DNA of 64,000 nucleotides from Candidatus Omnitrophota bacterium (GCA_963805065.1 CAWDSS010000010.1:407059-471058); one strand, 5' to 3'. Numbered from the stretch's first letter, positions 32,743-63,956 are shown. Numbers and translations are program-made. Notes: generated by a model not told the origin, from the sequence alone.

Positions 32743-34026
32743 CTATTCTTTTGCTAATTTAACAAGGAGGGGCAAGATATCCCGGCCGAGCAATTCTCCT
32801 AATGAGCCAAGTTTCGCTGCCTTTTCGGAGAAACTCATGGTGCCGTCAGGCTTGATATTATCGCCTGAAACCAAAAGCGGGACAGGGTCTGCTGAATGGG
32901 CTTTAATCGCGCATACCGTGGAATGGTCTGCGGTTACAGCAACAACTGTATTTTTGATATCCAGCTTAGAAAGTAAGCTGGTAAAAAAGTATTTGTCTAT
33001 CGCTTCAACAATCTCTTTTTTCTTATTGAAATCTCCGTCGTGCGCCGGTTCATCCGGGCCTTTAATGTGCACGTAAATCCCGTCAAATTTTTGTATAGAA
33101 TCCAAAGCTACCTTTGCCCAGACAGGATAATCCACGTCCAAATGCCCGGTTGAATCAGGTACATCGATTATTTCCATGCCTGTAAGAAGCGCAATACCTT
33201 TTTCTACCGGCATCTGCACAAATGAGCCGAATTTCAGGTTATACACAGTTTGTATATCGGGAAATTTTGGCAAATGATCCCCCGCATCGCGCGATAAAAT
33301 CACGTTACCCGGCATTTTATTCTCGGACACCCTTTTTTTATTTACCAAAGATTCATTCAGGACTTTATTGGACTTCTCTGTAAATTCATTTAGCAGTCGC
33401 GCTGCTTCTATTGCCTCTTTTGAATCTTCATATCCGGGCATGGGAACTGATTCTGCCACAAAATTCTTAAAACTCTCTTTTGCTACGCCAAAAACTCCTT
33501 TTCTGTCATAGGCAGGGTCTGTATTTGTAATCCAGCCGGATAATTTATTGTGCATGCCTCTTATGACTAAAACTCCGCGATGGCCGATTGTATTTTTGAA
33601 TTCGAAGGTCGCGCTGCTAAGCGTGACTTTCGAATTTATTTCCTTTGCTAAGCTGGTTGCTTCCTCGGTAGTCAAATTCCTTCCCACCCGGCGGTCTTTA
33701 ATGGTCTTGGCGTCATCTGCTACCGTAGCAAAATTAACGCGGAAAGCTACGTCCCCGTCATTTACCGCGATACCCTCTGCAAAAGATTCTAAGGGGCCCC
33801 TTCCTGTATAATATTTATGCGCGTCGTAGCCAAGCAGGCTAATCACGGCAATATCCGATTCAGGCGCAATACCCTTAGCCACTGGATAAACTAAACCGGT
33901 CTTACCCTGCTGAGCCAGGCGGTCCATGTTCGGCGTGAGTGCCGCTTCAAGAGGCGTCTTGTTATTTAATTCCTTAATGGGCAAATCTCCCAAGCCGTCT
34001 AATACTACATAAATAATTTTTTTCAT
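32743..34026 (-). CDS. apgM: cofactor-independent phosphoglycerate mutase, archaeal-type (ApgM family)
   Basis: 427 aa; IIYVVLDGLGDLP...; alkaline-phosphatase-superfamily metal-site pattern. Confidence 0.7.
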   Translation of the reverse strand: MKKIIYVVLDGLGDLPIKELNNKTPLEAALTPNMDRLAQQGKTGLVYPVAKGIAPESDIAVISLLGYDAHKYYTGRGPLESFAEGIAVNDGDVAFRVNFATVADDAKTIKDRRVGRNLTTEEATSLAKEINSKVTLSSATFEFKNTIGHRGVLVIRGMHNKLSGWITNTDPAYDRKGVFGVAKESFKNFVAESVPMPGYEDSKEAIEAARLLNEFTEKSNKVLNESLVNKKRVSENKMPGNVILSRDAGDHLPKFPDIQTVYNLKFGSFVQMPVEKGIALLTGMEIIDVPDSTGHLDVDYPVWAKVALDSIQKFDGIYVHIKGPDEPAHDGDFNKKKEIVEAIDKYFFTSLLSKLDIKNTVVAVTADHSTVCAIKAHSADPVPLLVSGDNIKPDGTMSFSEKAAKLGSLGELLGRDILPLLVKLAKE

Positions 34027-34038
34027 CTGTTAATTATT

Positions 34039-37000
34039 TTAGCATTTAGAGAAACCACAGGCATGGCATTTAACGCAGCCTTCTTCGTGGCGTAGCGCAC
34101 CCCCGCAATCCGGGCATACCCCTACGATGTCTCCTCTATCTTCCAAATCAGTAGTGATGATTTCATCTTCGTGCGAATGCTTCATAGAAATACTTGCCGC
34201 CGCTTCTACTGAAGCCTTCAAGAGCTGGCTATTGACCAGCCTTCTCTCAACTACGCGCGCGATAGCATCTGCGCAGGAGAAAATCCTTTGTCCTTTTTCC
34301 CATGAAGGGCTGGGGCAGCGGATATTACGCAATTGCTCAATTATCGACTTTACTTCTATGCCTGAACGAAAACCTAAAGATACTAATCTACCGATTGCTT
34401 CCAGCTGCGATGCTGCGCAACCGCCGGCCTTACCCATCTGCGTAAACAGTTCAAAAGGCCTGCCTTCCTCGTCGACGTTTATAGTAACATAGAGATTGCC
34501 GCATCCGGTTGAGACCTTGGTTGTGGTACCGATAATTACCTCAGGCCTTGGCCGCGGAGCAATTTCTTTTTTGAATTCCATGCCTATCGGTTCCTGCTTT
34601 TGTTTGGCAGTACCGACATTAAGCACCTGCTCTTCACGGCTCTTATCACGGTATATAGTAATACCTTTACAACCGGTTTCATAAGCCAACAGATATGCTT
34701 TTCTTACATCTTCCAATGTTGCATCATGAGGGAAGTTTATGGTCTTGGAGGTAGCATTGTGCACGTATTTCTGGAAAGCTGCCTGCATGCGCACATGCCA
34801 TTCAGGGGAAATGTCATGGGCTGTTACAAATATCCTTTTTACGTCATCAGGTATGCCTTCGATGTTCTGGATAGAGGCGTTTTCCGCAATTTTTTCCATT
34901 AATTCGCGGCTGTAAAATCCTCTTTCCTTGGCAATCTCCTCAAACAAAGGCTCTACTTCTACTAGCTTATCGTTATCCATGACATTACGATAATACGATA
35001 CCGCAAATATTGGCTCTATCCCCGAAGAACTCGGGCCGGCAATGATACTTATGGTGCCGGTAGGCGCTATTGTAGTAAGGGTGGCGTTACGCATTTTCAT
35101 AGGATGATCTTTTTTATCGTAAATACTTCCCTTAAAAGCAGGGAACACCCCTTTTTCTTTTCCCAGTTCCAGTGATTTTGCGGTTGATTCCTCCAATATA
35201 AAAGACATTACTTTTTCCGCAAGCGCCACAGCCTCATCGCTATTATAAGGTATCTTAAGGATAATTAACAGGCTTGACCAACCCATAACACCTAACCCGA
35301 TTTTACGCGTCACCTTGGTGGCTTTTTCTATTTGGGGAAGGGGGAATTTGTTTACGTCAATAAGGTTATCCAGAAAATGCACTGCCAGGCGGGTAACTTG
35401 TTTTAATTTATCCCAATCGATTTCTATGCGTCCGCCCACGTTTTTATGCATTACCGCCAGGTTTATTGAACCCAGGTCGCAGCTTTCATAAGGCAAAAGC
35501 GGCTGCTCTCCGCAGTCGAGAGAAATAAAACCATTGCTAATAAAAGTCAATGTTGCTGGTTCAGTAAGGTCGTATACTTCTTGTTCTCCTAAATACTCAA
35601 TCTTATCTATCGTATCTTCAAATTCAGACGAATAAAAATTATGTTTAGATAAAATTTTTAACTTCTTTTCATTTTTATTACAGAGAAAACCGATTTCTTC
35701 AATAAATTTCTTTATATTATCCCTGCTTATTTGAAGCTCATGGCATACCCCATCTAAAATATAATCCCGTCTTTCTCCTCCTGCGCTTGTATAAGCAAAA
35801 CCTCTTCTTTCTCGGCGGCTCCTGTCATATATCTTAGAATATATGCCTAAATTTATGAGGAGAAGTTGGACGCCTTTTAAAAGTTTAAGAGATTTTGCAG
35901 TCAGGCGTATATATGTCGTGTTGTTAGTCTCCTCTATACCGATTGTGCCATCAGCAGTAAATAGTCCCTGCAAAAACCCAATTACAGCTTCTTTTGGTGC
36001 TGTGCAAATTAAGTCCGGAACTTCTTTCTGTTCTGAATCCCATGCTTTAATCCCTAGGCTTTTAAAAAATTCTACAAAGTATTTACTGTGATATGATAGA
36101 TGATATACATTATTTTCTCTCAACACTTCTTTGATATCCTGTCCGTAAAAATTATTTATAATGGGTTTGATGTAATCTAAAATCTCTAAATCATCCTGGC
36201 TAAATGTGAAACCTGTCCGGCAGTTTTCATCTTGATCTCGCAACCAACCATCTCCTACCAATAAGCCTAAAACCTGCCCTAATTCTTTTGACCATCGGGA
36301 AGGAAAATTAAATTTGTAGCTCTTGCTATTTTCTCCAATATATTCATTCTTAATATTAAAAGGCAAACAGGTATTATCATTAAACTTTCCTGCTCCGGAT
36401 TGGATAAGCACTTTGTGGATGCGGGGTTTTAAATCTTGCACCCTGACCCAGCCTTCGGTAGTCATAACCTTATGGTCAGCGGTAGCTATTAACTCAAAAC
36501 CTGACTTAGCAATCGCTTTAAACACGGGTTTCACGCCGGTTTTAAAAACCCGGCTGATTCTATTTAAGGAAACTCCTAATTTTACTTCAGTGGCCACGCT
36601 GCCTTCTTCTTCAACGCTAAAGAGAGCATCTAATATTCTATCATCGGTAAATATGCCTATGCCTCCGCCACTATAGTCTCTGGTCAGATCCTTTATTTTC
36701 ACCAAGCCTTTTTCTGTTGAAACTAATGTATCTCCTACAACGCAAGGATTGGTACTTTCAATTTTTCCTAATCGCGGCGTAGGATTGTATTGATTAATCC
36801 TATCGATAAAGATAATGCCCGGCTCACCATTCTTATGCGCCTGCTTAACTATCAGGTCAAATACGGTTTTGGTATTAAGGCTCTGCACGACTTTGTGTGT
36901 ATGAGGATCGATCAAATCATAATCCTCTCCATTTTTAAGCTTATTCATGAAATCGTCGGTAATGGCAACCGAAATATTAAAATTGGTTATATGCTTGTTG

Positions 37001-37563
37001 TTTTCCTTGCAGGTGACGAATTCCATGATATCGGGATGATCTACCCTTAGTATCCCCATATTTGCCCCGCGGCGAGTACCACCCTGCTTAACCGCTTCGG
37101 TTGCCGCATCATAAACTTTCATAAAAGATATCGGCCCGGAGGCAATCCCTCCGGTAGTTTTTACCACCGCATTCTTGGGGCGAAGCCGCGAAAAAGAAAA
37201 TCCCGTGCCGCCGCCTGATTTATGTATGAGGCTGGTAACTTTCAGGGTTTCAAATATAGATTCCATGGAATCGTCAATTGGTAAGGTAAAACATGCGGAA
37301 AGCTGGCCTAAGTCTTTTCCTGCGTTCATAAGGCAAGGAGAATTAGGCATGAATTCTAAAGAAGTCATGATTTCTAAAAAATACTTTTCTAAGTTTGCCA
37401 CTTCTGTTTCGCTCTTTGCGTAAAGTTTATCCGCCAGCGCAATTGCCTGGGCGACCCTGCGAAACATTTCTTCCGGGGTTTCAATTACTTTGCCCTGTTC
37501 GTCTTTTTTAAGGTACCTTCTCTCTAGCACCTTAAGGGCATTTTCCGAGAGTTTCAGTTCCAT
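34039..37563 (-). CDS. nrdJ: class II (adenosylcobalamin-dependent) ribonucleotide reductase NrdJ, interrupted by an intein
   Basis: 1174-aa ORF; exteins total ~764 aa with active site IESTNP|CGEQPLLPYESC and a C-terminal Cys-rich zinc ribbon CPDCGG...CVKCHACGFSKC. Confidence 0.9.
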   Translation of the reverse strand: MELKLSENALKVLERRYLKKDEQGKVIETPEEMFRRVAQAIALADKLYAKSETEVANLEKYFLEIMTSLEFMPNSPCLMNAGKDLGQLSACFTLPIDDSMESIFETLKVTSLIHKSGGGTGFSFSRLRPKNAVVKTTGGIASGPISFMKVYDAATEAVKQGGTRRGANMGILRVDHPDIMEFVTCKENNKHITNFNISVAITDDFMNKLKNGEDYDLIDPHTHKVVQSLNTKTVFDLIVKQAHKNGEPGIIFIDRINQYNPTPRLGKIESTNPCVVGDTLVSTEKGLVKIKDLTRDYSGGGIGIFTDDRILDALFSVEEEGSVATEVKLGVSLNRISRVFKTGVKPVFKAIAKSGFELIATADHKVMTTEGWVRVQDLKPRIHKVLIQSGAGKFNDNTCLPFNIKNEYIGENSKSYKFNFPSRWSKELGQVLGLLVGDGWLRDQDENCRTGFTFSQDDLEILDYIKPIINNFYGQDIKEVLRENNVYHLSYHSKYFVEFFKSLGIKAWDSEQKEVPDLICTAPKEAVIGFLQGLFTADGTIGIEETNNTTYIRLTAKSLKLLKGVQLLLINLGIYSKIYDRSRRERRGFAYTSAGGERRDYILDGVCHELQISRDNIKKFIEEIGFLCNKNEKKLKILSKHNFYSSEFEDTIDKIEYLGEQEVYDLTEPATLTFISNGFISLDCGEQPLLPYESCDLGSINLAVMHKNVGGRIEIDWDKLKQVTRLAVHFLDNLIDVNKFPLPQIEKATKVTRKIGLGVMGWSSLLIILKIPYNSDEAVALAEKVMSFILEESTAKSLELGKEKGVFPAFKGSIYDKKDHPMKMRNATLTTIAPTGTISIIAGPSSSGIEPIFAVSYYRNVMDNDKLVEVEPLFEEIAKERGFYSRELMEKIAENASIQNIEGIPDDVKRIFVTAHDISPEWHVRMQAAFQKYVHNATSKTINFPHDATLEDVRKAYLLAYETGCKGITIYRDKSREEQVLNVGTAKQKQEPIGMEFKKEIAPRPRPEVIIGTTTKVSTGCGNLYVTINVDEEGRPFELFTQMGKAGGCAASQLEAIGRLVSLGFRSGIEVKSIIEQLRNIRCPSPSWEKGQRIFSCADAIARVVERRLVNSQLLKASVEAAASISMKHSHEDEIITTDLEDRGDIVGVCPDCGGALRHEEGCVKCHACGFSKC
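35515..36744 (-). mobile_element. intein (410 aa) with a LAGLIDADG homing-endonuclease domain, inserted immediately before the catalytic Cys of NrdJ
   Basis: Starts CVVGDTLV (Cys codon at 36742-36744); block B TADHKV; dodecapeptide motifs LGLLVGDGWL and FLQGLFTADGTIG; block F VYDLTEPATLTFISNGF; ends ...ISLD followed by extein Cys (Asp codon 35515-17, Cys 35512-14). Confidence 0.85.
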
Positions 37564-37586
37564 TGTTCCTCCATATTAAAAATAAT

Positions 37587-37640
37587 GGGGACGTTTCTAT
37601 TTTCCTCTGAACTGGAGACGTTAAAAATAGAAACGTCCCC
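37587..37640. repeat. palindromic intergenic repeat, copy B
   Basis: GGGGACGTTTCTATTTT-cctctgaactggagacgtt-AAAAATAGAAACGTCCCC, between the nrdJ start and the end of the LacI-family gene. Confidence 0.85.
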
Positions 37641-37767
37641 ATTCTTTTACAGTAAAGTTTATAATAGCATATTTTCTAACGGGGTCAAGATAAAAATACA
37701 ACATATTGTAGGCTTAGGTTTTTGATATACAATAAATTGTGCTAGAGCAACCTTTCCGACGGGCTAA

Positions 37768-51726: not shown

Positions 51727-52431
51727 TTATATCGCTCTTAACACGCGAGATAAACCCATAAGATCGGCCTTTTCCAGGTTAACGCCTACCTTGTACTTAT
51801 TGGTATCCACCATTTTTGACCAGACTACTTCACCTCTGGTGTACAGCGGCTCGCCCTTATCAGGAATTTCAAGCCACATTTCCAAAGCAGTCCTGGGGTG
51901 TAATTGCTCATTTGCCGAGATACCAATACCTTTAGCGCTGACATCTTCAATTGAAGCCTGGCTCTCTTTATTTTCTCTAAGGTTTATAAACTTCACGGGA
52001 AAAGTCGCATTAAACCTGTCAAAAATCCTGCGGTCTTGAAATTTTTCTTCTTCCATTGTCTCACCCCCTTCAGGTATTGTGTCTTTCCACCATTGGTTAT
52101 TTACCAGACGAGGAAAATTGCTGCGCATAAACTTATAGATTGTTTCCTTATCCCCGTCCTTAATCTTATTGAAGCAAACGCCATGGATGTTGACGCTGCC
52201 TATTGTTTTATGCCAGGCTACCCACGCTTCTATATTTATAGCAGAAACGTCAGATAAAACAATAGTTAATTTCACAAACTCATCTTTCGGTAACTTCATC
52301 TGCAAAGCAAGGTTACAACCCAAGAAACTGATATCGCCCACAGTGCAGTCCGCGCAATTTTCAGCTCCCTGAAGCTTCACCTTAAGCTCTTTGTTTATTT
52401 TCCACCTCGCACAACGCCTTCGCCCTGTCAT
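51727..52431 (-). CDS. tandem PilZ-domain protein (two c-di-GMP-binding PilZ modules)
   Basis: 234 aa; module 1 RRRCAR ... DISFLG; module 2 RRIFDR ... DVSAKG (RxxxR plus D-x-S-x-x-G signatures); the ATG overlaps the stop of the giant ORF (ATGA). Confidence 0.65.
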
Positions 52432-55400
52432 CTCACTCCTTTCTGTGGCTGGTAATAGGTTAAGTTTATATTAGGTAAAACAGCGGCATTAGCATGCAAG
52501 CCGCTATTGACAATCGGCAATAAAGTTCCATCTGTGAAATGCGAATTGTCAGCTGTGAATTGAATTGGTGAACTAGAATATTTCTCTTCCCAAACTCGAT
52601 CAACAAACTGAACTAGCCTGTTTATCGCATTCATATGCGAATAAAGGTATTGGTTTAACTTTGAAAATTCAACTTTATGCCGTGGATCAATAAACAACTG
52701 AGCTACTAATTCTGCGGCATCCTGACCAAATTCGTTTCTTGTAGAATCGTATGTGTATATAATATATTCTAAAATTCTGTAGGTATCTTCAGCCATAAGT
52801 TGCTTTGCAAAACCTAAAAGTTGTCGATCCAACGTGCCCTTGAAATGGCCATAAACTTGATAGATCCATATCTTGTCAAGCTGAATCAAATTTGTGAAAG
52901 AAATTGCTCCTGCTGTAGCCTGCGGCAATTCAGCCAAACTCAAAAACTCATTATATAATTCCTCCGGAACGAATCCCAAATTAACAATAGCAATATTAGT
53001 ACCGGAAAGTAAAGCAGGGCTATATTCTCCTTTGATTAAATCAATATAACGAATTCCGTATTTCTTCACTGTTTCTCGTAACGAATTAGATTCCGACCAA
53101 TCGTTAGACCTTCCGAAAGTAAAGAGAGTTACGTCTCTTTCTTTAAGATGAACTGCACTCTCTTTGGCTTGCGCAATAATCTGCAGGAACTGAACAAGAT
53201 GCTTCCAGGTAAATTCTTGGTAATAGGTCGTCCACAATGAACTAGCTATGCTATTTTTATCAAATGGCAGGGTTTTTAGCAATTGTCTCATCTTTAACTT
53301 TTCTAGGAAACACGCTTTGGCTTGTTGATTATCTTGAGATTTATCATTTTGCTCTTTTTTAACAAGCTCGGGGTTAAAGTATAAGCCAACGCCATTGCTA
53401 AAAAGGCCAGCTTCCAAATAAAAAGTCTCTGCATCCCTTGCCCCTCTAAGAGGAGAATGATAATCATCAACAATAATCTTTAAACGCCCTCCTAATCCAA
53501 AAGGAATATCATGATTAAACGAGACGATAAGATCAACCGGTGAAATTTGTTGCCGTTCCTTTTCGCTTGGATATTGAATAAACAAAAGACCGTCATTCTC
53601 AAAATAATCCCCAAAAGTCCTCTCCCGTCCAAAAAGAATCCTTTGAGCCTGACAAAACCCCCAATAGCTTAAATAGATTTGAATCGCTGCCTGCGGATAA
53701 AATTGTTTTATTGTCCGAGCAAGATTAAGGACAACGCCCGCATCTCCGTACCCTTGATCTTCCTCCGTAGACGGTAACGCAACGAGCCTTACAGACCTAA
53801 TTTCATCTTTGGCGACACTCCGAACCATTTTTACTTTTTTACCCTTCGCTCCCTTTTTTATCACCGGCGAGGCGGCGCGTTTTTCGGTTCTAGGTGTTAG
53901 GTTTTTGGTTATTGAGCTAGAACCAACAGACACCGGCGAAGAGACAAAACTTATACTCTGTTTGGCTACCTGGAAAGCTTTTTCCACATCAAGAAAAGCC
54001 GAGCCTTTATCGTCAATTTCAATTTCAAAACTATTTGAAAACACATCGAGAAGTTGCTCTATTTCTCCAGAAGTTAACTTCTCTGTAAGAAGATACGAAA
54101 AAACTTCACTTATATATTCGCCAAAAGCTGAAACAAAAACTCTATGGTTGTCAGTTGAAACAGTATCTTTATAAATAATAAGCTTATACCAGCGCTGGGC
54201 GATATACCTTAAAAGCTCTAAGTTTGAGACGTATTGCTCTAAATCTTCCTGTGCGAATGCCCAGGCAAGAGGAACGCCGTAATATAGAGTTTTACAGGGT
54301 GGCATATTTTCTGAAAGAAACTGCTCGCCGAATTTCAGCGTCGTTACAAAAACGTCGTCTTTTTTAACAAACAATTTTTTCAACATGGGTATCAATACTG
54401 TTTCTGCAAAATCAGTGAGAGTTTTTGATTTATTTAAATGGGCGATGAAGTCCTCTGTCGCCCGGTCAACACTTGAAAACAACCATTCCTTTTTCTCAAG
54501 GCGCTCTTGGACCTTCGGATCATAAAGTTTCCAAAGACGCACATAACTGTTAACGCGTCCATTAACCCTATAGTCTTCATAGAGCTCTAAAACCCGGGCA
54601 ATCGGCTCGCAGAAACCGTTAGGGTTAACGCTATCATTTAGGAGTTGTGTAAAAAACTTATCAATCTGCTTTCTATAAGCTAAGAGGATTCCGCAAAATA
54701 TTTCAAGCGGCTCAAAATTTTCACCAAGTTTCTCTAAGACATAGCTGGCATTATAATAGCCCTCAGGCGCAACCTCTAGGCCATCCAAATCAATGACAGA
54801 CGCATAATAGTAGCCATTTTTATGTAAAGCATAAGCATTATCTTCATGCGGATCGCGTAAAAATAACCCTTTGTTAAAGACGCGCCATAAATGAAGATAC
54901 ATGGCTACTTTCAGGCTGTTTTTCTCGAAAGAATTTAGATCCTCTGTTTCTTTGAGGTATTGCTCTGTCATAATGATGCGTTCTTTTTGAGTCCCGGGCT
55001 CATAGATAGTATAAGTCATTCCATACCAAGGATGATAATCTAAATCATATTTATGAAGCCTGTCGACCACGCAATCCATGAGGAAAGTAAAGTTAGAATT
55101 ATATTCATAGCCATCCAGCGTCTTTGTAACATACTCCCGGACGACCTTAAAAACAATGGGATACTGCCGTCTGCTTTCACCCTCTCCATACTCCAGAGTC
55201 ATTCTAAAGAGGCGCTTATAGTTACCACTGTCGTCAATGAGTTTAACCTCTTTGATTTCTATATCTTGGGGCCTAGCATGAATCTTAAAATTGATTCTAA
55301 ACGTATCAATCTTAAAATCAGGCTCTTCAGCTACCGCATAAAGCAAAGCCACATCCCTGAGATATCCTTTGCCATAACGCTCTAAGTTCTCATGTAGGGC

Positions 55401-58400
55401 TTCAAAAAATGCTTTCTGCTCTCTAGGAGAAAGGCCTTCCTCAAAAAATTCCCCCTGCTCTTTAAAGGTTCGCGTTAACAATCTTTGTTCGATCTCTTCG
55501 ACATTGTCAACATTCATGCTATAGAATTCTTTCGGATGGCCTGGTTTACAAATAGCCTTGGCGAATGCATTCAAATTGGAATCTTTAAAATTAAATTTAA
55601 CCGGCGAGCTAACCGTGTCTTCTGCACCATTTTTGCTGGTTCGGAATGCCGCCGCGAATCTTCCCAAGGAAAATTGATCACCAAAAAGATTACCGCCTGC
55701 TCTGTATCTGCGATAAATATCCAATACTTCGGCTGTCGAATAACAAAATCCGCTTGGATTAATAGCATCAGAAATCATTTTTTCAAAGAACTTCTCATAT
55801 TGATGGCCGTAAGCTAAAAGGATTCCGTAGAATACTTCAAGAGGCTCGAAATTATCCCCAAGTTTTTCAAGAACATGACTTGCATCAAAATCTGATTCGT
55901 AGCCCACTTCCAAACCGTCTAAATCTATCATCAAAGGATAATATTGGCCTTCCTTTTCAATAATCATCACATTCTCATTATGGGGAACACGAACAAATAG
56001 CCATCCTTCAAAAATCCTCCAGAAAATAAGATAGAGCGACACCTTTAAACTGTTCATCTCGAGCGCTCCTAAATCCTGAGTCTCATCCAAATATTGTTCT
56101 GTTAAAATCAAGCGTTCACGACCAACCAAAGGATCATAAAGAACATGGGTTGTCCCATATTTAGCATGAAAAGCGGGATTATATTTTTGAATCTTATCAA
56201 TAATGCAATTTACGACGTTCACAAATTCAAAATTATAGGGGTATCCGTTAAGAGTTCTTAATTTTTCGTCTCTAACAACCTTGAGAACTATAGGGCATAA
56301 TGCACCGCTTATTCTATCTTCCAAAATTAACTTAAAAACCCTTTTGAAAGTGCCGCCATCATTTAAGAAACTCAGTTCTCTCACGGCGATATCTTTGGGG
56401 GCCGCTATAATATCAGAAAACTTTTCTGAGCCATCTTTCTTAAAACCGCCTTTTTGGATCATGGAATAAATCAAGGCTACATCTTTAATTAAACTCTCGC
56501 CGCAACATTGTGCACGCCCTGTTTTTAGAACCTCCATAAAAACTTTTTGCTCTCCAAAGGAAAGCAGGCTTTCCCTAAATTCTTCATTAACCAAAGCTTG
56601 AATATCAGCAAGGAATCTATCCGGCTGAAGATTAATTGTTTCTTTAGCATGAGTAGTTATACAAAAAGATTTTGCAAAATCATTCATTGCCTGATCTTCA
56701 AAATTATATTCTATCCCTTTGTAGTTAGAATTTTTGTTGAAAGATAAACCGATTAGATTGTTTTTGACCGGCGAGCTGGATTCGGCTCCTTCATTTTTAG
56801 GCATCGGTCCCTCGGCTTGCAGCCTCGGGACTCCCTCGCCTCTCATTGGGCTCGTGCTCGGTCGCGAGGCGGCGCCTTCGTTAGTTCTCAGTTTCCGGTT
56901 TCTAGTTTTCAGATTATGATTCTCAACTAACAACGGACAACTGACAACAGACAACTGCAAAGCCGGCGAGGCGGCGTGGGGATTTTTTCCTGCCGGAGAG
57001 CTGCCAGATTTAGTATCTTCAGCCCACGCTTCTTGAACTTTCTTGATTCCCGAGAGGTCTTCTAATTTTTCCTTAAGCCTTGAGAGTTCTATTTCCTTAT
57101 CTACTTCTAACAACAAACCGTCAAGCTTCTGGATTATCCCAAACAAATCAACTTCAGGAAAAACCATTTCTTTTAAAATTGAAAGCAATTTTTTTCTTCG
57201 TAATTGCTTATCCGGTAATTCAGCTCCCGCTGCCGGTGAGCTAGAGAACAGCTGCCTGTTTATCTTAAGGCGTTCTGCAAGCTCTCTGGCCATCTGCCAA
57301 CGCCATTCCTGCCTATTTTGAGTCCCTTTATAGAAGAAACCTGTTATAGTAGTCCCTCTTTCTTTCTCGCTATCCATCGATAACAAAATCTCATAGCGCG
57401 GAATACATAAAATTTTAGCTATACCAACATATTTAGAAACAATCACCACGCTTTCTCTGACATGTTCTATGACAGAAACATCGGAATATTTACCTACGCT
57501 ACGAGTCAATCCCTCTCCTGCCCATCCCCCAATTCCGTTTTCCCTGTGCCATTCAACAGCCCTTTCGATAGGGATAAGCCGTCTTCTCTTATCACGGAAG
57601 CCCAATCCTGCATCATGAATGGATATTAAAACAAAATCATCAACCTCGCAGCGCACGATTAAACCCAGAGATCTCTTTGCGTGCTGGTTAGTGTTTTCCA
57701 CAGAGCACGCAGTAAATTCATTTTCATCGCCCCTTATCTTTCCCTTAGTGATAACCGGGATTGTTTTTGTTAAATTAAAATAATCATCCCGGAGGCTACA
57801 TTTGTAATCCAAGCCATCTATTTTACGGCTACTCATGGCAGCCCCAATAATCCATGTATCCATTCCTTCAAGCGCCTTCAATTCGTTTTTGACCACAATA
57901 AACTCTTTCAAATCTTTTTTGGGATTCAAAGCCATCCTCATAAAATTTCTTGCTTTTGGCACAAAAGAAAACACCCTCTCGTCTATCACCGATGAGCTTG
58001 CTTTAAGCGTAGTCGAAGGGAATAGTTGGACCTTTGGCGAGGCGGCGCATTCAGGCGAAGCAGGGTTTTTATCGAGAGGGGAACAGGATTGACTAGTTGT
58101 TTCTTTTTTCTCAAGTGAATTCACGCCAACAAACGAGTAGTACATATGCTCAGCATCCTCAATAGGCGTTTCAAGGATTCTTTCTTTCAAAGATGCGATA
58201 TACCTTGCGTCATCTTTTCTTTGCAGAATTTCTGCGGCTTCTTGTGCTTTATTTTCTCTGCCTAATTCGATGCTTTTAGCAAAAGTATATAAAATATCTT
58301 TTCCGTTTTTACCAAGCTTTCTTTCGATAAGATCCAGCCTCCCGTTAATAAAAGCCTCCCACAGCACTGGTAATCCTACGTGCTGTGATAATAAATCTAT

Positions 58401-61400
58401 AGCCTCTATAAGCCAGGCATGCCTGTAACGGGTTGAGAATTCCCTGCATTGGTTAAGTAAACTCAAAACCAGATAATCCACTAACGCAAGTTCAAAAAAC
58501 CTGAATTCCGATTCGCAAAAACCATCGAATAAGAGGCAAAGCGCTTCTCTCATTAGATACGGCTCTAAATCTAGCCCCTCAAATGAACTGCCATCGTTAT
58601 TCCAGCGAGAAGCAAGAATACGAGCTTGATAAGGTACTCGTATCACTATGCCATTAGACAAATGGCTCACAAACAAAACAATATGAGACAAGTCAATCGT
58701 GGAATTAAACGCCTGAGAAAGCCTATGAGAAACATTCCTTACGCTTTGTTTTTGAGCTTCATTTGGCTCTGTAATGTGACGTTGTGCCACTCTAAAGTAG
58801 GAAGCAAAAATGACCTTTTCCACATAAAATGCCATAATAAAGGCATTTTCTCTTTCGGCTTTATAATTATTTCTTGTTTTGCTGCGTTTTTCAAACCCCT
58901 TGATAAAATTCAAAATTGAAAACATATCTCTTTTGCGCAGATGACGAAACGCCTCTATGAGACCTGCTTTTGCAGCCTCAGGAGCCTCAACTTTATTTAT
59001 AATTTGTCGTATCCCCGTGCGATATAAATAATCTATATACCTTGCATCAGGAGATAAGTCATTGATATTGTAAGCGTTACCCGCAACAACGATACAACCA
59101 TCTCCGAAAGGAATATCAGCCCAGTCTGCCTCATCATAGCGAACAGTAAAAGAGAAAATGGTTTCCTTATCAAAGGTCATTCTTGCAAAATAGCGCTTAT
59201 CTTTCAGGTCATCGGGAACTAACCTCTTCATTACTACGGAATCCTGCCACTTCTCTTTAAATAAATTACTGTGGAGCCTTACATTAAGGTCTTGCTCACC
59301 AGGAATATTGGCAAAAATGAAGTTTTCTTCACCCACTAAATTAGCCTGTACTGTTCCCGAATAGGGGAAAAATCTTTTTTCCTCCAACAGAGCTAATAAA
59401 TCCAGGTAATCTCCTAGTTTCTGATTTTGAATAGCGGTTATCACTCTCTCAAAGTATGAGAAATCAGGAACCTTCTCAAGGAAAGTATTAAATCTAAATC
59501 CGCAAAGGTGCTCATATAAACCTTTACTTATTAATATGCCCATAATGTTATGTGCAGCACGAAGAGTTTTTACATTACCCTCAGCTATACGCATCAAATC
59601 AGGCAATATATAAACTTCATAATTATCAACGTTAGGGAACCGTTTGTAAAAATCAGCGATTAAATCTGGAACAGCATCTAAGATAGAAAGATTATAAGCA
59701 TATCTAAGCCATTCCCATCTTCGATCATAAAATCTATCGAGGTCGCGCTCAAGAAGGAGTAAACGATAAATTCTTTCTACAGCTTCTTCTTTATAAGGCC
59801 TTAATTGCTCTGGGCAATTATCATTAAATAATTGTTCGGCGGTTTCCCATTGCTTCCACTCTCTCTTCATTGATTTTAAGACAAGGCGGATAGAAGATAT
59901 TTCTTTATCTTTATTGAGTTTATCTACCCATATATGATTTACGCCTAAAGACTCTCTCTGCGGATTAACAGAAGTCAAAAGTTGACTGAAAAACCAGATG
60001 GCTTCAGGATGATATTTATCCTTCATATGAGGAATCGCCCATTCTATCATGATATCAATAAATGGTTTTTTGTTGATGTCGCCCAATATAGAATCGAAAG
60101 TGGGCTTTTCTTCATATGCATCATGATCATTGGTAAGAACGAGAGATTCAAGAGTAATAGTAAGGTTTATATTTCCTGGTTTGTTATGCGAGATTAATTC
60201 TTGGGCATCGAACTTTCTAGCCTCTTTGGTACTGAATTCGGCTGCTCCTCCTTGTGCGATTATTGAATTCACATTAAACCGCTCAGGATACTTCTTGTAT
60301 TGAGCAGTTAAGCCATATCGTTTTAGAATAGAGGTTAACTCAGCGGTACGATTAAGTGGAGGGAGCTTTATGTTATAGTTAATTTTCTCCGGAAAATATT
60401 TTTCTAGTATGCTTACCAAAACAGGCAAACTTCTGCCCCGTTTTTTAAATACTCCTTCGTGGTTAGAATCAAGAGAAATCACTAATATCACGTTAGAAGC
60501 AATCTGAGCCATAAAATGCTCAAGCTCTGTTTCTTCTGTAGGTAGAAAGAACCCACTGGTAACCACGTAAACTTTATCTATATTAGCGGCGATAAAATTA
60601 ACTATTTTAAGAAAATCAGGATACAACGTAGGCTCGCCTCCCAGCAACCGGACACTTGAAAATCCCCGTATGTCTTCGCTAATAAGTTTTTTGAGTTTCT
60701 CACAAGGAAAAATAGCACCCGGATTATGCTTCATAGCTTTTTCTGCACAGCAAAATGGACAGCCCAAACCACACCTGAAAGTCATTATAAGATTAATGTG
60801 ATCTTCAAAATCCAAGAAAGTGCGCAAAAGATCATATGTTATTGCAAATCGATATTCAGAATGTAATATCCTGTCTAGGATATCTTGCATTGTCTCAAAG
60901 CGCTTCCTTTCTTTATCCTCCATCACCGGCGAGGCGGCGCGGGGATTATTTTGCACTGGAGAACCGGATTCTTCAAAAACCTTACATAAGTTTATGATTT
61001 CGGTTGACCCCCAAAAATCAACCTTTTCAATTTCAATATTCGGTGATCCTAACTTTTCATTAACATATTTCTCGGGGTTGGCAAAAACTCCGGGCTTAGA
61101 AGGATCATGGCTTTTTAGAATAACAGCCAAACATCCATCGGGCGTAATACAAAGGCTTGAGTAGAACGGCTCTTGTTCTCTTTCAAAACGACTTCGCTCT
61201 AAAAGACCTAACTTTAATGCCATGGAAAACGCGCGTCCTTCATAAAAGATACCATGGATATTCTGCTTTAAATTGATCTCAAATTCTTCTCCCAAGGGAA
61301 CCCAAACCAACTCTCTTGTCAAGTTATTGAACGACTCTTTCAATGCATTACCACGTACACTAAAAGGCTGCAGTTCTCCTAATTCCCAAATAATCAGGTG

Positions 61401-63956
61401 GTCTTGCATTGAATCATTTTTGTAAGATAAAGGTAAGAATTGAATTATATCACGATATCTACTGTAGTATGACACTAACAGCTTTCTAAAATCTTCTGAA
61501 TCAACCCCACCATGTCTCATGACTGCTTGTATAACATCCGGATAAAACAAATGAAAACTAAAATATGGCCATTGTGAAGAATTTTCCACAGGATTAAGGG
61601 ATTGAAAGACTTTTTCAAGAATATCCCTATTATTCTGATTAATAAGTTTCTTGGCATTAATAACCAAATCTTTTCTCACTGGAAATCTAGGCAATAACTG
61701 AGAGATAATATAAGCTAAATCACGACGATTTAAAGCATCTGAATCAAGTCTAGTTCCTATTTTTAATGCAGGCCATTTATTAGTTATCGAAAATATTAGT
61801 AATCTGAATAATTTAGGTGACATCTGTTTTACGGGTCCCATAGCATCAAACAGACAATGTTCACATGCATCATTACAACCCCATGTGAACAAAATTCCTA
61901 TCTCTTTGTGGTTTTTGAGCCATAATTCAACAATCATTTGAAATTTTTTTGTAAAGCAGGGAAATGAATTGTTTATGAAATTTTCAATCGTAGGCGAGGC
62001 GGCGCGGGGTTTTTCTCCCACTGGCGAGCTGGATCGAGTCTCAAGATCACCATAAAGATCATAAATAAGCCTCTTTTCAGCATCGCCTAATATTTCATAG
62101 GCGGTTGCAGCCTCTTTAAATATTTTTTCGGCTTCTTTGTTGTTAGGGTTACGATCAGGATGAAACTTCAAAGCTATGGCTCGATATGCCTTTTTGATCT
62201 CTTCCCGCGTAGCATCAGGTTTAACCCCAAGAGTCTTGTAAAACTTAAGCGACTTATTATAACCATTGACGCTGTTAAGAGAATTGTAAGACAATGCATT
62301 GATATACCGCGGGAGCTCCGAATAGCTATCGTCTGTAAGAATATATCCTATTTCTCTTAAGTAAATAACAATTGAATAAGCGGTATCATAAATATTCTTT
62401 CCTTGAGGTTGAATAATCCAAGTCTTGAGGATCATAGGGTTATCGTGGCAGACAAAAGCGACCTCTATAAACCTCTCTCCTGGCCTGCCAGGACCTTCAT
62501 TTTTCACGCGTATATCAAGGACGCCTTCTTGGTAAGGTATTTGGACAATATCTGCTTCTGGGCGGCCAATACTGTTTGTATCAGAGGCCCGAACTACACT
62601 CTTTTCCAAGCCGCCCGAGCTGCTCAAGCCTCCTTTCAATACATTCTCCATCCTATCGCATGATTTTGTTGGTTCAGCTTCCTGATGCATTTGATCAAGC
62701 AGCGCCAAATCATAAGACTCCACAGCTTCAGAGTTGAATACCAGTAATCTCTTCCCGTCTACAGAGAAGAAAGGCTTATCTTTTTCCCCCAGCTTAAGTG
62801 CAATTTTTTTGCCATTGATAGTAGTACAAATCAAATTAATGACTTTTGTCAAACCGTCATATATATGCAGATAGCTCCCACACGCAGAATAATAAGTATT
62901 GAGCAATGCGCCACGCGTATTCAAAGGAACGATTTTTGCGTTATCCACATGATAGATGGCACAGCTAGGATCAACATCCCAGTTTATTTTGTTAATGTCA
63001 TAACAAAGAAGTGTACTGTCAAGTGTTGGTGATATAGAAAATTGATAGAGATTGGGGGCGATAAAAGTCCTTTCTTTTGTTTTGAAATTATACACTTCTG
63101 CTGAACCACACAAACTGATAAATAGCGAATCTGGAATAGCTATAAAATTAGCAAAACTCGTGCCTTGGGGGATAAGAAATATTTTCCTAGTTTCAAACTC
63201 ATAAATTACTTTCTCTTTATTGTCCAAGCGCAAGATGGCAAATTTTTCATCTTTGGGAAAAACATGAATAAACGGCAATCTCCCCGGCTGCACTTGGGAT
63301 AAATCAACTTCAAGGCCTGTCTTTAGATCAAACAGGCTGCTATTATAATCTTCTTTAAACATTACAATGGCGTATCCATCTTGCCCTGAAATATGGACAT
63401 GAGACACTTGACCTTCGAAATTTATATTTAAAACTTCTCTTTTTTCGATATCGATTATTTGCACGGTGTCATTAGGGAAATAAACAGGTATCAAACTACC
63501 GCTTCTTGAAAATGTACCAAACATACTGGCTCCCTTATGCAATCCCTTAATTTCTAAAACCCTTCCCGATTCTATATTGATTATTTCCGGTGAAAACAGT
63601 TTGCCGCGGTAGTCGATCGCCAGATACATATCCTTTGGCGAAAAATTAGCGCTCAAAACATCTGTTTTTAACGATAGCTCAACGATCTTTCCAGATGCAA
63701 CTTCATACAGCTTCTCATCAACAAAAGCAAACTTTCCTTTCCTAGATATGAAATTACTATGTGCATAGTGATAGTGATCCATATTATATGCATTGAATCC
63801 CGGAAGGCGCATTCCTTGTGTCTCAAGAGGAGAACTACTAAGCCTCGGCGAGGCGGCGCGGTTAAAATCGGTCGATAGTCCATAGTCTATAGGCGATAGT
63901 GAAAGTCCCGTGTCCTGACCATTGACCATAGACCATTGACCATAGACTGATTTCAC
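52428..63956 (-). CDS. giant multidomain protein (3842 aa or more; the ORF remains open upstream of the GTG start and continues past the window edge)
   Basis: Uninterrupted 11.5-kb ORF; domains are listed as separate features below. Confidence 0.8.
54657..55364 (-). other. giant protein: atypical protein-kinase-like module 2 (internal duplicate of module 1)
   Basis: PIVFKVVRE ... MTEQYL ... LRDPHEDN ... VIDLDGLEV (IDLD at 54783..54794); DPHxxN resembles the catalytic loops of ABC1/UbiB- and APH-type kinases. Confidence 0.5.
55782..56504 (-). other. giant protein: atypical protein-kinase-like module 1
   Basis: PIVLKVVRD ... LTEQYL ... VRVPHNEN ... MIDLDGLEV (IDLD at about 55917..55928). Confidence 0.45.
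56925..56959. repeat. heptanucleotide tandem array (CAACTAA CAACGGA CAACTGA CAACAGA CAACTGC) inside the giant ORF
   Basis: Encodes ...[13 protein letters not shown]... within a low-complexity linker. Confidence 0.7.
57387..57689 (-). other. giant protein: GHKL/histidine-kinase-like ATPase region
   Basis: [12 protein letters not shown] (DxGxG, about 57597..57626) ... [10 protein letters not shown] (G2-like); extent approximate. Confidence 0.4.
60087..60809 (-). other. giant protein: radical-SAM domain 2
   Basis: [18 protein letters not shown] (CxxxCxxC at 60750..60773) and [15 protein letters not shown] (GGEP at 60630..60641). Confidence 0.65.
61257..61904 (-). other. giant protein: radical-SAM-like domain 1
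   Basis: [15 protein letters not shown] (CxxxCxxC at about 61854..61877); extent approximate. Confidence 0.5.
62052..62246 (-). other. giant protein: DnaJ J-domain
   Basis: [62 protein letters not shown], with the HPD tripeptide. Confidence 0.8.
62397..63779 (-). other. giant protein: beta-propeller-like repeat region (WD40/PD40-like)
   Basis: Repeating ~40-aa units with (I/V)xxxD and YD/FD strand motifs; extent approximate. Confidence 0.35.
63883..63950. repeat. heptanucleotide tandem arrays (GTCGATA/GTCCATA/GTCTATA ... GACCATT GACCATA x2) inside the 5' end of the giant ORF
   Basis: gtcgatagtccatagtctataggcgatag...gaccattgaccatagaccattgaccatagactgat encodes [31 protein letters not shown]. 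Confidence 0.75.

Follow-up and report, generated by a model that had tools for sequence, protein, structure and literature searches.

An intein ending in aspartate and predicted to splice at the radical cysteine of a class II ribonucleotide reductase from Candidatus Omnitrophota

The DNA analyzed here, called the window throughout, is a stretch of 64 kb from Candidatus Omnitrophota bacterium (GCA_963805065.1, CAWDSS010000010.1:407059-471058), and all positions are counted from its first letter. On its minus strand lies a gene that we identify by comparison with known families as nrdJ, encoding a B12-dependent (adenosylcobalamin, class II) ribonucleotide reductase (RNR). The open reading frame (ORF) of 3525 nucleotides (nt) is uninterrupted and contains one intein, which is inserted at the catalytic cysteine and ends in Asp instead of Asn. 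The parts of the gene are listed below with the evidence on which each assignment is based (lengths in amino acids, aa).

34039-37563, minus strand: nrdJ precursor ORF, 1174 aa plus stop (ORF call, Pfam, NCBIfam, alignment to Thermotoga maritima NrdJ).
36745-37563, minus strand: N-extein, residues 1-273, with the end ...RLGKIESTNP (matches T. maritima NrdJ up to STNP-C322).
35515-36744, minus strand: intein, 410 aa, protein residues 274-683, from Cys1 to Asp410 (translation, Pfam, alignment, predicted fold).
34039-35514, minus strand: C-extein, residues 684-1174, beginning at Cys+1 (35512-35514) (junction codons, Pfam, 1xje alignment).
36706-36744, minus strand: intein block A, CVVGDTLVSTEKG, with the Cys1 nucleophile (C1, T10, G13 and L14 invariant in the family alignment).
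36472-36483, minus strand: intein block B, T88-A-D-H91 (TxxH; T88, D90 and H91 invariant in the family alignment).
35635-36297, minus strand: nested LAGLIDADG homing-endonuclease domain, about intein residues 150-370 (Pfam, alignment, Foldseek).
36244-36270, minus strand: LAGLIDADG motif 1, LGLLVGDGW, residues 159-167, with Asp165 (G164-D165-G166 invariant in the family alignment).
35944-35979, minus strand: LAGLIDADG motif 2, GFLQGLFTADGT, residues 256-267, with Asp265 (translation).
35515-35577, minus strand: block F/G C-terminal splicing module, VYDLTEPATLTFISNGFISLD (translation, family signature, mini-intein alignment).

The precursor contains the Pfam domains Ribonuc_red_lgN, Ribonuc_red_lgC and TSCPD, of which Ribonuc_red_lgC (E=1.6e-132) extends over residues 89-971 and bridges the insert, and the C-extein finishes with the TSCPD domain and a Cys-rich tail. 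In NCBIfam the precursor reaches 1193.5 bits with the NrdJ equivalog model NF006417 (cut-off 961) and 720.9 bits with TIGR02504 (cut-off 399.95). Its top match among solved structures is T. maritima NrdJ (1xje/1xjk, E about 1e-115), and this alignment falls into two blocks, which pair query residues 84-274 with residues 127-322 of the chain and query residues 684-982 with residues 322-639. The class II active-site motif TNP-C-GE and the cysteine of the ..ESC.. motif are visible in the 1xje alignment. C274 and C684 are both placed on T. maritima Cys322 (...STNP-C-GE...), which we take from the structural work on that enzyme and from Dassa et al. (2009) to be the thiyl-radical cysteine; in the C-extein of the window protein the corresponding residue is Cys+1, contained in CGEQPLLPYESC. 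As both flanking cysteines align to the same residue, the junction is fixed, and exactly 410 residues must leave to restore TNP-C-GEQ. The precursor cannot be active as a reductase until the intein has left, and the spliced product is predicted to comprise 764 aa. With an unbroken ORF and exteins that exceed the threshold of the NrdJ equivalog model, the gene seems to be under selection for a product that is functional only after splicing.

The insert itself is assigned, from profile matches and a modelled fold, as a splicing domain of the HINT type in which a LAGLIDADG homing endonuclease with two motifs is nested. The insert was matched by the NCBIfam model intein_Nterm TIGR01445 (36 bits, cut-off 24.5) and by the Pfam families Intein_splicing (44-46 bits, cut-off 35.8) and LAGLIDADG_3 (75-79 bits, cut-off 22.5, E=2.4e-22), and LAGLIDADG_2 was found slightly under its cut-off of 25 bits (24.4 bits, E=3.2e-05). 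Furthermore, it aligns to that part of the NCBIfam model NF006207 (Pyrococcus-type RNR) which represents the intein (E=2.1e-41). An AlphaFold model, calculated with a nine-sequence alignment as input, has a mean pLDDT of 86.1 and a pTM of 0.87, with disorder confined to residues 38-55. The top matches of this model in a Foldseek search of the PDB are the intein-endonucleases TliVMA (E=3.8e-22), PI-PfuI, PhoVMA, PI-PkoII and PI-SceI, and matches to I-DmoI cover the endonuclease domain with a target TM of about 0.7. All residues for the first two splicing steps are kept (C1, T88, H91, D392 and Cys+1), and so are the endonuclease residues D165 and D265; D392 belongs to block F (V-Y-D392-L-T-E) and is invariant in the family alignment. 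The G+C content of the intein is 36.7%, compared to 43.1% in the N-extein, 45.5% in the C-extein and 41.3% in the whole window.

The junctions read NP/CVVGDTLV and FISNGFISLD/CGEQ (the slash marks the splice point), with the codons TGC for Cys1 (36742-36744), CTC for the penultimate Leu (35518-35520), GAC for the terminal Asp (35515-35517) and TGC for Cys+1 (35512-35514). The junctions and the codon positions of Cys1, Asp and Cys+1 had been quoted in an initial annotation made from the DNA sequence, and every one of them was found as given there. The same is true for the other main statements of that annotation, which are a class II RNR as the host, an insertion exactly at the catalytic cysteine, an intein of the LAGLIDADG type with 410 aa and an end in Leu-Asp. 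Its statement that all expected intein blocks are present holds for the blocks themselves, but the assisting His of block F is missing, which had gone unnoticed.

The intein finishes with ...EVYDLTEPATLTFISNGFISLD directly in front of Cys+1 and thus ends in Ser-Leu-Asp. Three positions by which inteins are commonly recognized are occupied differently here: Asp410 stands in the place of the C-terminal Asn (G:7), Leu409 in that of the penultimate His (G:6) and Leu399 (35548-35550) in that of the block F His. The last assignment comes from a gapless alignment to solved DnaB/DnaE mini-inteins (..VFDLTVPGLHNFVANNII..), in which Leu399 falls on the His of the HNF motif, and the family alignment concurs. 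The module also holds Ser403 and Ser408. In canonical inteins the cyclization of Asn in step 3 is normally aided by a His of block F and a His of block G, and in some inteins Asp or Gln stands for the terminal Asn (Mills 2014 PMC4031507; Tori 2010 PMC2807308; Wood 2023 PMC10663303), while the G:6 His is missing from about 5% of functional inteins (Mills 2014 PMC4031507). The terminal Asp is a recognized variant and no bar to intein membership.

Searching proteins with the intein as query yielded 68 relatives, of which almost all are RNR fragments, and every one that shows the junction has its insert at TNP/C...CGEQ, with ends in S-L-D, S-N, H-N, H-Q, R-Q or R-N. By scanning GTDB with one genome per species we detected 524 or more encoded relatives, of which the top 80 loci were retained; 77 complete inteins could be parsed from these loci, and together with the window intein they form a comparison set of 78. 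The terminal residue is Asp in 33 (29 Leu-Asp, 4 Val-Asp), Asn in 25 and Gln in 20 of these, which makes Asp the most frequent terminal residue in the closest allelic relatives. Asp or Gln ends had been called known but rare in the initial annotation, which associated them with RNR inteins. Known they are (Mills 2014 PMC4031507), but with 33 of the 78 ending in Asp they are not rare in this allelic family. The genomes with Asp-type inteins are labelled as Omnitrophota, as 'Planctomycetia/Planctomycetales' metagenome-assembled genomes (MAGs) that cluster with Omnitrophota, as Methanoperedens, as Heimdallarchaeota including the closed genome of Ca. Heimdallarchaeum aukensis, as Woese-, Pace- and Nanoarchaeota, as Nitrososphaeria and, in one case, as a Gammaproteobacteria MAG. 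The exteins closest to those of the window are found at four loci in Omnitrophota or 'Planctomycetales' MAGs (L003-L006) with 78-85% identity, and the inteins of the same loci are 63-68% identical, which points to an Omnitrophota-like bacterium as the probable host. Viral contigs contained no close relative of the intein; the best match reached 29% identity and all others were at or below this value, so that carriage of the intein by viruses is unsupported.

Positions that differ between the terminal types were chosen by the mutual information of residue and type across the 78 inteins. Five positions co-vary with the terminal type, and all of them lie in the final 12 residues:

Position 399: Leu 28, Lys 2, Tyr 2, Phe 1 and His 0 in the Asp type (33 inteins); His in 42 of the Asn and Gln types (45 inteins).
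Position 403: Ser or Thr in 32 of 33 of the Asp type; Ala, Cys, Gly or Val in the Asn and Gln types.
Position 408: Ser in 31 of 33 of the Asp type; Val, Ile, Thr, Ala or Leu in the Asn and Gln types.
Position 409: Leu 29 and Val 4 in the Asp type; His or Ser in 37 of 45 of the Asn and Gln types.
Position 410: Asp in the Asp type; Asn or Gln in the Asn and Gln types.

Across the Asp-type loci Ser408 is encoded by TCT, TCA, TCG, TCC, AGC and AGT, Leu409 by CTT, CTC, CTG, TTA and TTG, and Asp410 by GAT (26) and GAC (6). This synonymous turnover in the codons of the S-L-D triplet argues for purifying selection on the amino acids and not for decay or error. Asp termini therefore recur widely and are no isolated curiosity, and the signature that accompanies them removes both His residues that are held to assist step 3. 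The size of the Asp-type group, the five-residue signature with the loss of both His residues and the natural exchange of modules described below go beyond the papers cited here, but may have been described before.

Asp-type and Asn-type modules are also found side by side in closely related hosts. A neighbor-joining tree of the inteins, which is based on distances, gives a rough picture, carries no support values and was used only alongside the segment-identity and nucleotide mosaic analyses, places the Gln type largely in one clade and nests Asn-ending inteins inside Asp-type groups. The most informative loci (L008, L009, L012 and L013) belong to Omnitrophota MAGs. L009 and L012 end in Ser-Asn and are 70-80% identical to the Asp-type intein of L008 over residues 1-385, whereas their last 25 residues show 56-60% identity to Asp-type inteins and 80% to Ser-Asn inteins. 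At the nucleotide level the exteins of L008 (Leu-Asp) and L009 (Ser-Asn) are 90-100% identical, while the inteins alternate between 53 and 95% per 60-nt window, and L008 compared with L013 gives the complementary mosaic pattern. These patterns indicate that allelic inteins recombine. The occurrence of both modules in near-identical exteins argues that both are functional there, and Asp- and Asn-type modules appear to work in the same extein context. L008 and L009 are thus a natural matched pair for studying step 3 without Asn and without His.

Besides these close relatives, other intein lineages occupy the same site. A HMMER search with the 58-aa C-terminal module against 1.84 billion 50% representatives gave 196 hits at E<=1e-3, of which the best 150 were parsed; a profile of the module run against an index of 5.8 billion proteins returned one fragment. 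Among the parsed hits is a second Asp-ending lineage of 328-392 aa with the motif T-[LFY]-T-W-[IV]-T-N-G-x-x-S-[LFY]-D, which we call W-type (P0070, P0071, P0078, P0088, P0095, P0136, P0139, P0209 and P0118/P0254). Its splicing domain is about 32% identical to that of the window intein, which we call F-type, whereas the splicing domains of the window intein and of the ordinary Asn intein P0105 share 42.6%. With an identity of only about 32% between the splicing domains of the two types, the Asp terminus occurs in at least two splicing-domain lineages. A profile search with the W-type Asp inteins retrieved mostly inteins of dCTP deaminase and DnaB, and none from Carboxydothermus.

A further group of inserts at TNP/C...CGE ends in Gly, either as ..[ST]-D-T-W-I-T-N-G-Y-x-S-R-G/CGE or with the ends ..QQG, ..QRG and ..SVG (P0191, P0193 with its cluster members P0246-P0252, P0179, P0202/P0253, P0207, P0090/P0245 and P0108). 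These inserts carry an Asp where block F normally has its His, and among them are mini-inteins of 132 and 148 aa with normal Cys1 and block B. The 148-aa form, P0193, belongs to a 90% cluster whose 8 members all share an identical junction; one member is present on 15 contigs, and the contigs are up to 295 kb long. Outside their own group, the nearest relative of the Gly-type splicing domains is a W-type Asp intein. As a terminal Gly cannot cyclize, these inserts look like an undescribed intein variant.

Some nrdJ genes may hold more than one intein. In a Nanoarchaeota MAG (L038) and in P0002 a second intein starts 11 residues past the end of the first one (CGEQPLLAWEPC/FAPDTFITTKNG...), at the second active-site cysteine, and N-extein ORFs of 700-1000 aa at many other loci suggest additional inteins in the same gene.

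Taken together, we consider it probable that the window carries a functional mobile intein at the N-terminal side of the thiyl-radical cysteine, which would splice by a class 1 pathway with an anhydride of Asp410 at step 3. In step 1, Cys1 would make a thioester with Pro-1, aided by Thr88 and His91 of block B and by Asp392 of block F. In step 2 the N-extein would move to Cys+1, the future radical cysteine, which would give the branched intermediate. In step 3 the side-chain carboxylate of Asp410 would attack its own backbone carbonyl, so that a cyclic succinic anhydride and not an aminosuccinimide is formed and the intein is freed, and in step 4 an S-to-N shift would restore TNP-C-GEQ. For steps 1, 2 and 4 we expect the usual course of class 1 inteins, since none of the residues with a known role in these steps is missing, while the cyclization of Asp410 to an anhydride is proposed by analogy. 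The pocket of step 3 would be remodelled, as Leu takes the place of both assisting His residues (L399 and L409) and the hydroxyl groups of Ser/Thr403 and Ser408 are fixed in the Asp type. It is a speculative idea that L399 and L409 bury the site and that Ser403 and Ser408 give hydrogen bonds in place of the His residues. Asp-type modules could offer protein engineering a form of splicing with a different dependence on pH or redox state.

Several points weigh against this pathway. Splicing of the window precursor is deduced from its sequence and anhydride formation from analogy. In the Asp-ending intein Chy RIR1, the variant D345A is said to have still cleaved the C-terminal junction, and Amitai and colleagues reportedly concluded in 2004 that cyclization of the terminal residue cannot explain this. 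In addition, the Gly-ending sister lineage at the same site cannot cyclize, which hints at a chemistry that is independent of the last side chain. Step 3 of Asp-type inteins may not be a simple cyclization.

The alternative that follows from these points is that C-terminal cleavage does not depend on cyclization of the last residue at all, and that a carboxylate beside the scissile bond, provided either by the terminal Asp or by an Asp in place of the block F His, acts as catalyst or nucleophile. The peptide bond could then be broken, for example, by general-base-assisted hydrolysis or by aminolysis after formation of the branch. The sister inserts that end in ..S-R-G, ..Q-Q-G or ..S-V-G have such an Asp in block F ([ST]-D-T-W-I-T-N-G...), and a comparison with the W-type Asp inteins (T-[LFY]-T-W-I-T-N-G-x-x-S-[LFY]-D) suggests that the carboxylate swaps positions; outside their own group, the Gly-type splicing domains are nearest to a W-type Asp intein. 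The constancy of one Gly-ending junction throughout its 90% cluster and the C-terminal cleavage that is reported for Chy D345A fit this explanation as well. However, the window intein is of the F-type, whose splicing domain is closer to ordinary Asn inteins than to the W-type or the Gly type, no Gly-ending member of its own lineage occurs among the 78 inteins compared, and the terminal Asp is invariant in the Asp type, as would be expected if this residue reacts. We regard this alternative, which is drawn from sequence patterns, as unlikely for the window intein, and with a similarly low expectation we treat the broader idea that the Asp-type module marks a distinct C-terminal cleavage chemistry, in which the carboxylate by the scissile bond is decisive, and no minor variant of Asn cyclization. 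If this were true, the inteins of NrdJ would constitute a new mechanistic class, and the window intein together with the natural exchanges between Asp and Asn would be a ready experimental system.

It is still less probable that the intein is defective in splicing or splices only conditionally, so that the interrupted nrdJ is decaying or regulated while another RNR supplies the deoxyribonucleoside triphosphates. Three residues of step 3 are indeed non-canonical (L399, L409 and D410), the view is limited to 64 kb of the genome, so a second RNR is possible, and a redox trap between Cys1 and Cys+1 is conceivable. A decaying gene is nevertheless difficult to reconcile with an intact 3525-nt ORF whose exteins exceed the NrdJ equivalog cut-off, with the conservation of the residues for steps 1 and 2 and of both endonuclease aspartates, or with the presence of the same module in 33 genomes of bacteria and archaea, where the synonymous codon turnover indicates selection and not decay. 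Moreover, reviews accept Asp-ending inteins as competent for splicing (PMC4031507, PMC2807308, PMC10663303).

That the terminal Asp is an artefact, either by an AAC-to-GAC error of sequencing or assembly, as Asn (AAY) and Asp (GAY) are one transition apart, or by a misplaced junction with an Asn end elsewhere, can practically be dismissed, because Asp occurs in 32 other genomes with both GAT and GAC codons and together with four co-varying residues, an identical 1174-aa protein is encoded on a Logan assembly contig (possibly from the same sample), the T. maritima NrdJ alignment demands the removal of exactly these 410 residues, and the final 30 residues contain neither His-Asn nor an Asn in front of Cys, Ser or Thr. 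Asn is otherwise found nearby only as N404 of the invariant Asn-Gly, and a junction there was rejected since GFISLD would then remain ahead of the catalytic Cys. The initial annotation had named a different C-terminus and an error at codon 683 as the findings that would overturn it; both were looked at, and neither holds. The annotation of the locus is thereby settled as one intact nrdJ with an intein that looks competent for splicing and a genuine Asp terminus, and not as a pseudogene or a fusion.

In the region between nrdJ and a gene of the LacI family (37577-37688) we observed a promoter-like sequence on the minus strand (TTGACC-16-TATTAT with an upstream TG, 37688-37661). Directly upstream of it lies a near-palindrome, CTACAATATGTTGTAT (about 37690-37705, minus strand), which we assume to resemble an operator of the NrdR-box type. 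On the 3' side of the promoter-like site the nrdJ leader contains a long, near-perfect hairpin, GGGGACGUUUCUAUUUU...AAAUAGAAACGUCCCC, with -36.9 kcal/mol (z=-6.5; 0 of 200 shuffles as stable), followed by a U-rich run and a GGAGG ribosome-binding site. This hairpin may be an attenuator or a terminator; Rfam and tRNA scans of the 64-kb window gave no match, the hairpin included. At 32743-34026 on the minus strand, 12 bp downstream of nrdJ, a protein of 427 aa resembling cofactor-independent phosphoglycerate mutase is encoded (Pfam Metalloenzyme and PhosphMutase, on the Logan contig), and this unrelated housekeeping gene appears to share an operon with nrdJ. Almost all ORFs of at least 150 aa in the window are located on the minus strand, among them a giant ORF of 3842 aa (52428-63956).

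Among known systems the closest counterpart of the window intein is an Asp-ending RNR intein, Chy RIR1, which is said to be the founding example of its kind and to have been described as unique by Amitai and colleagues in 2004. The wild-type intein reportedly splices, and replacement of its Asp345 by Asn, Gln, Glu or Ala is reported to have abolished splicing. Both inteins are hosted by an RNR and end naturally in Asp, and Chy RIR1 is the case cited in reviews for Asp replacing Asn. The two differ in length, as Chy RIR1 reportedly has 345 aa and the window intein 410 aa, and they are likened here by host and terminal residue. Furthermore, what was described as unique in 2004 is found here in dozens of lineages. 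The window intein is genuine as another natural Asp-ending example, as the initial annotation proposed, but its novelty is lower than implied there, as the kind has been known since 2004.

Gln-ending inteins are known from the RNR of Chilo iridescent virus (CIV RIR1) and from PolII of Pyrococcus abyssi and Methanoculleus marisnigri (Mills 2014 PMC4031507). Like the window intein they carry a terminal residue other than Asn that is still able to cyclize, and CIV RIR1 is also located in an RNR. Gln-ending alleles (H-Q, T-Q, R-Q) account for 20 of the 78 inteins at the NrdJ site itself, and all 20 of these retain the His of block F and most of them the penultimate one, whereas the Asp type of the window has neither. 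The canonical allelic inteins of RNRs (Pyrococcus, NF006207; PI-PfuI, PDB 1DQ3) share the HINT and LAGLIDADG architecture with the window intein, and the site directly N-terminal to the radical Cys is the most frequent insertion site of RNR inteins (Dassa et al., 2009). In contrast to the window intein, canonical inteins at this site have a terminal His-Asn or Ser-Asn and have not lost the His of block F.

A chemical parallel to the proposed step 3 is found outside the inteins. In the NeissLock work, the self-processing module of FrpC is described to cleave Asp-X bonds autoproteolytically via an aspartic anhydride, by which the downstream amine is released (PMC7846742). This is the chemistry that we propose for the window intein, in which a side-chain carboxylate would attack its own backbone carbonyl. 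The FrpC module has an unrelated fold, is triggered by calcium and does not ligate, so the likeness is chemical only. By host and natural ending, the window intein belongs to an already known kind, the Asp-ending inteins of ribonucleotide reductases.

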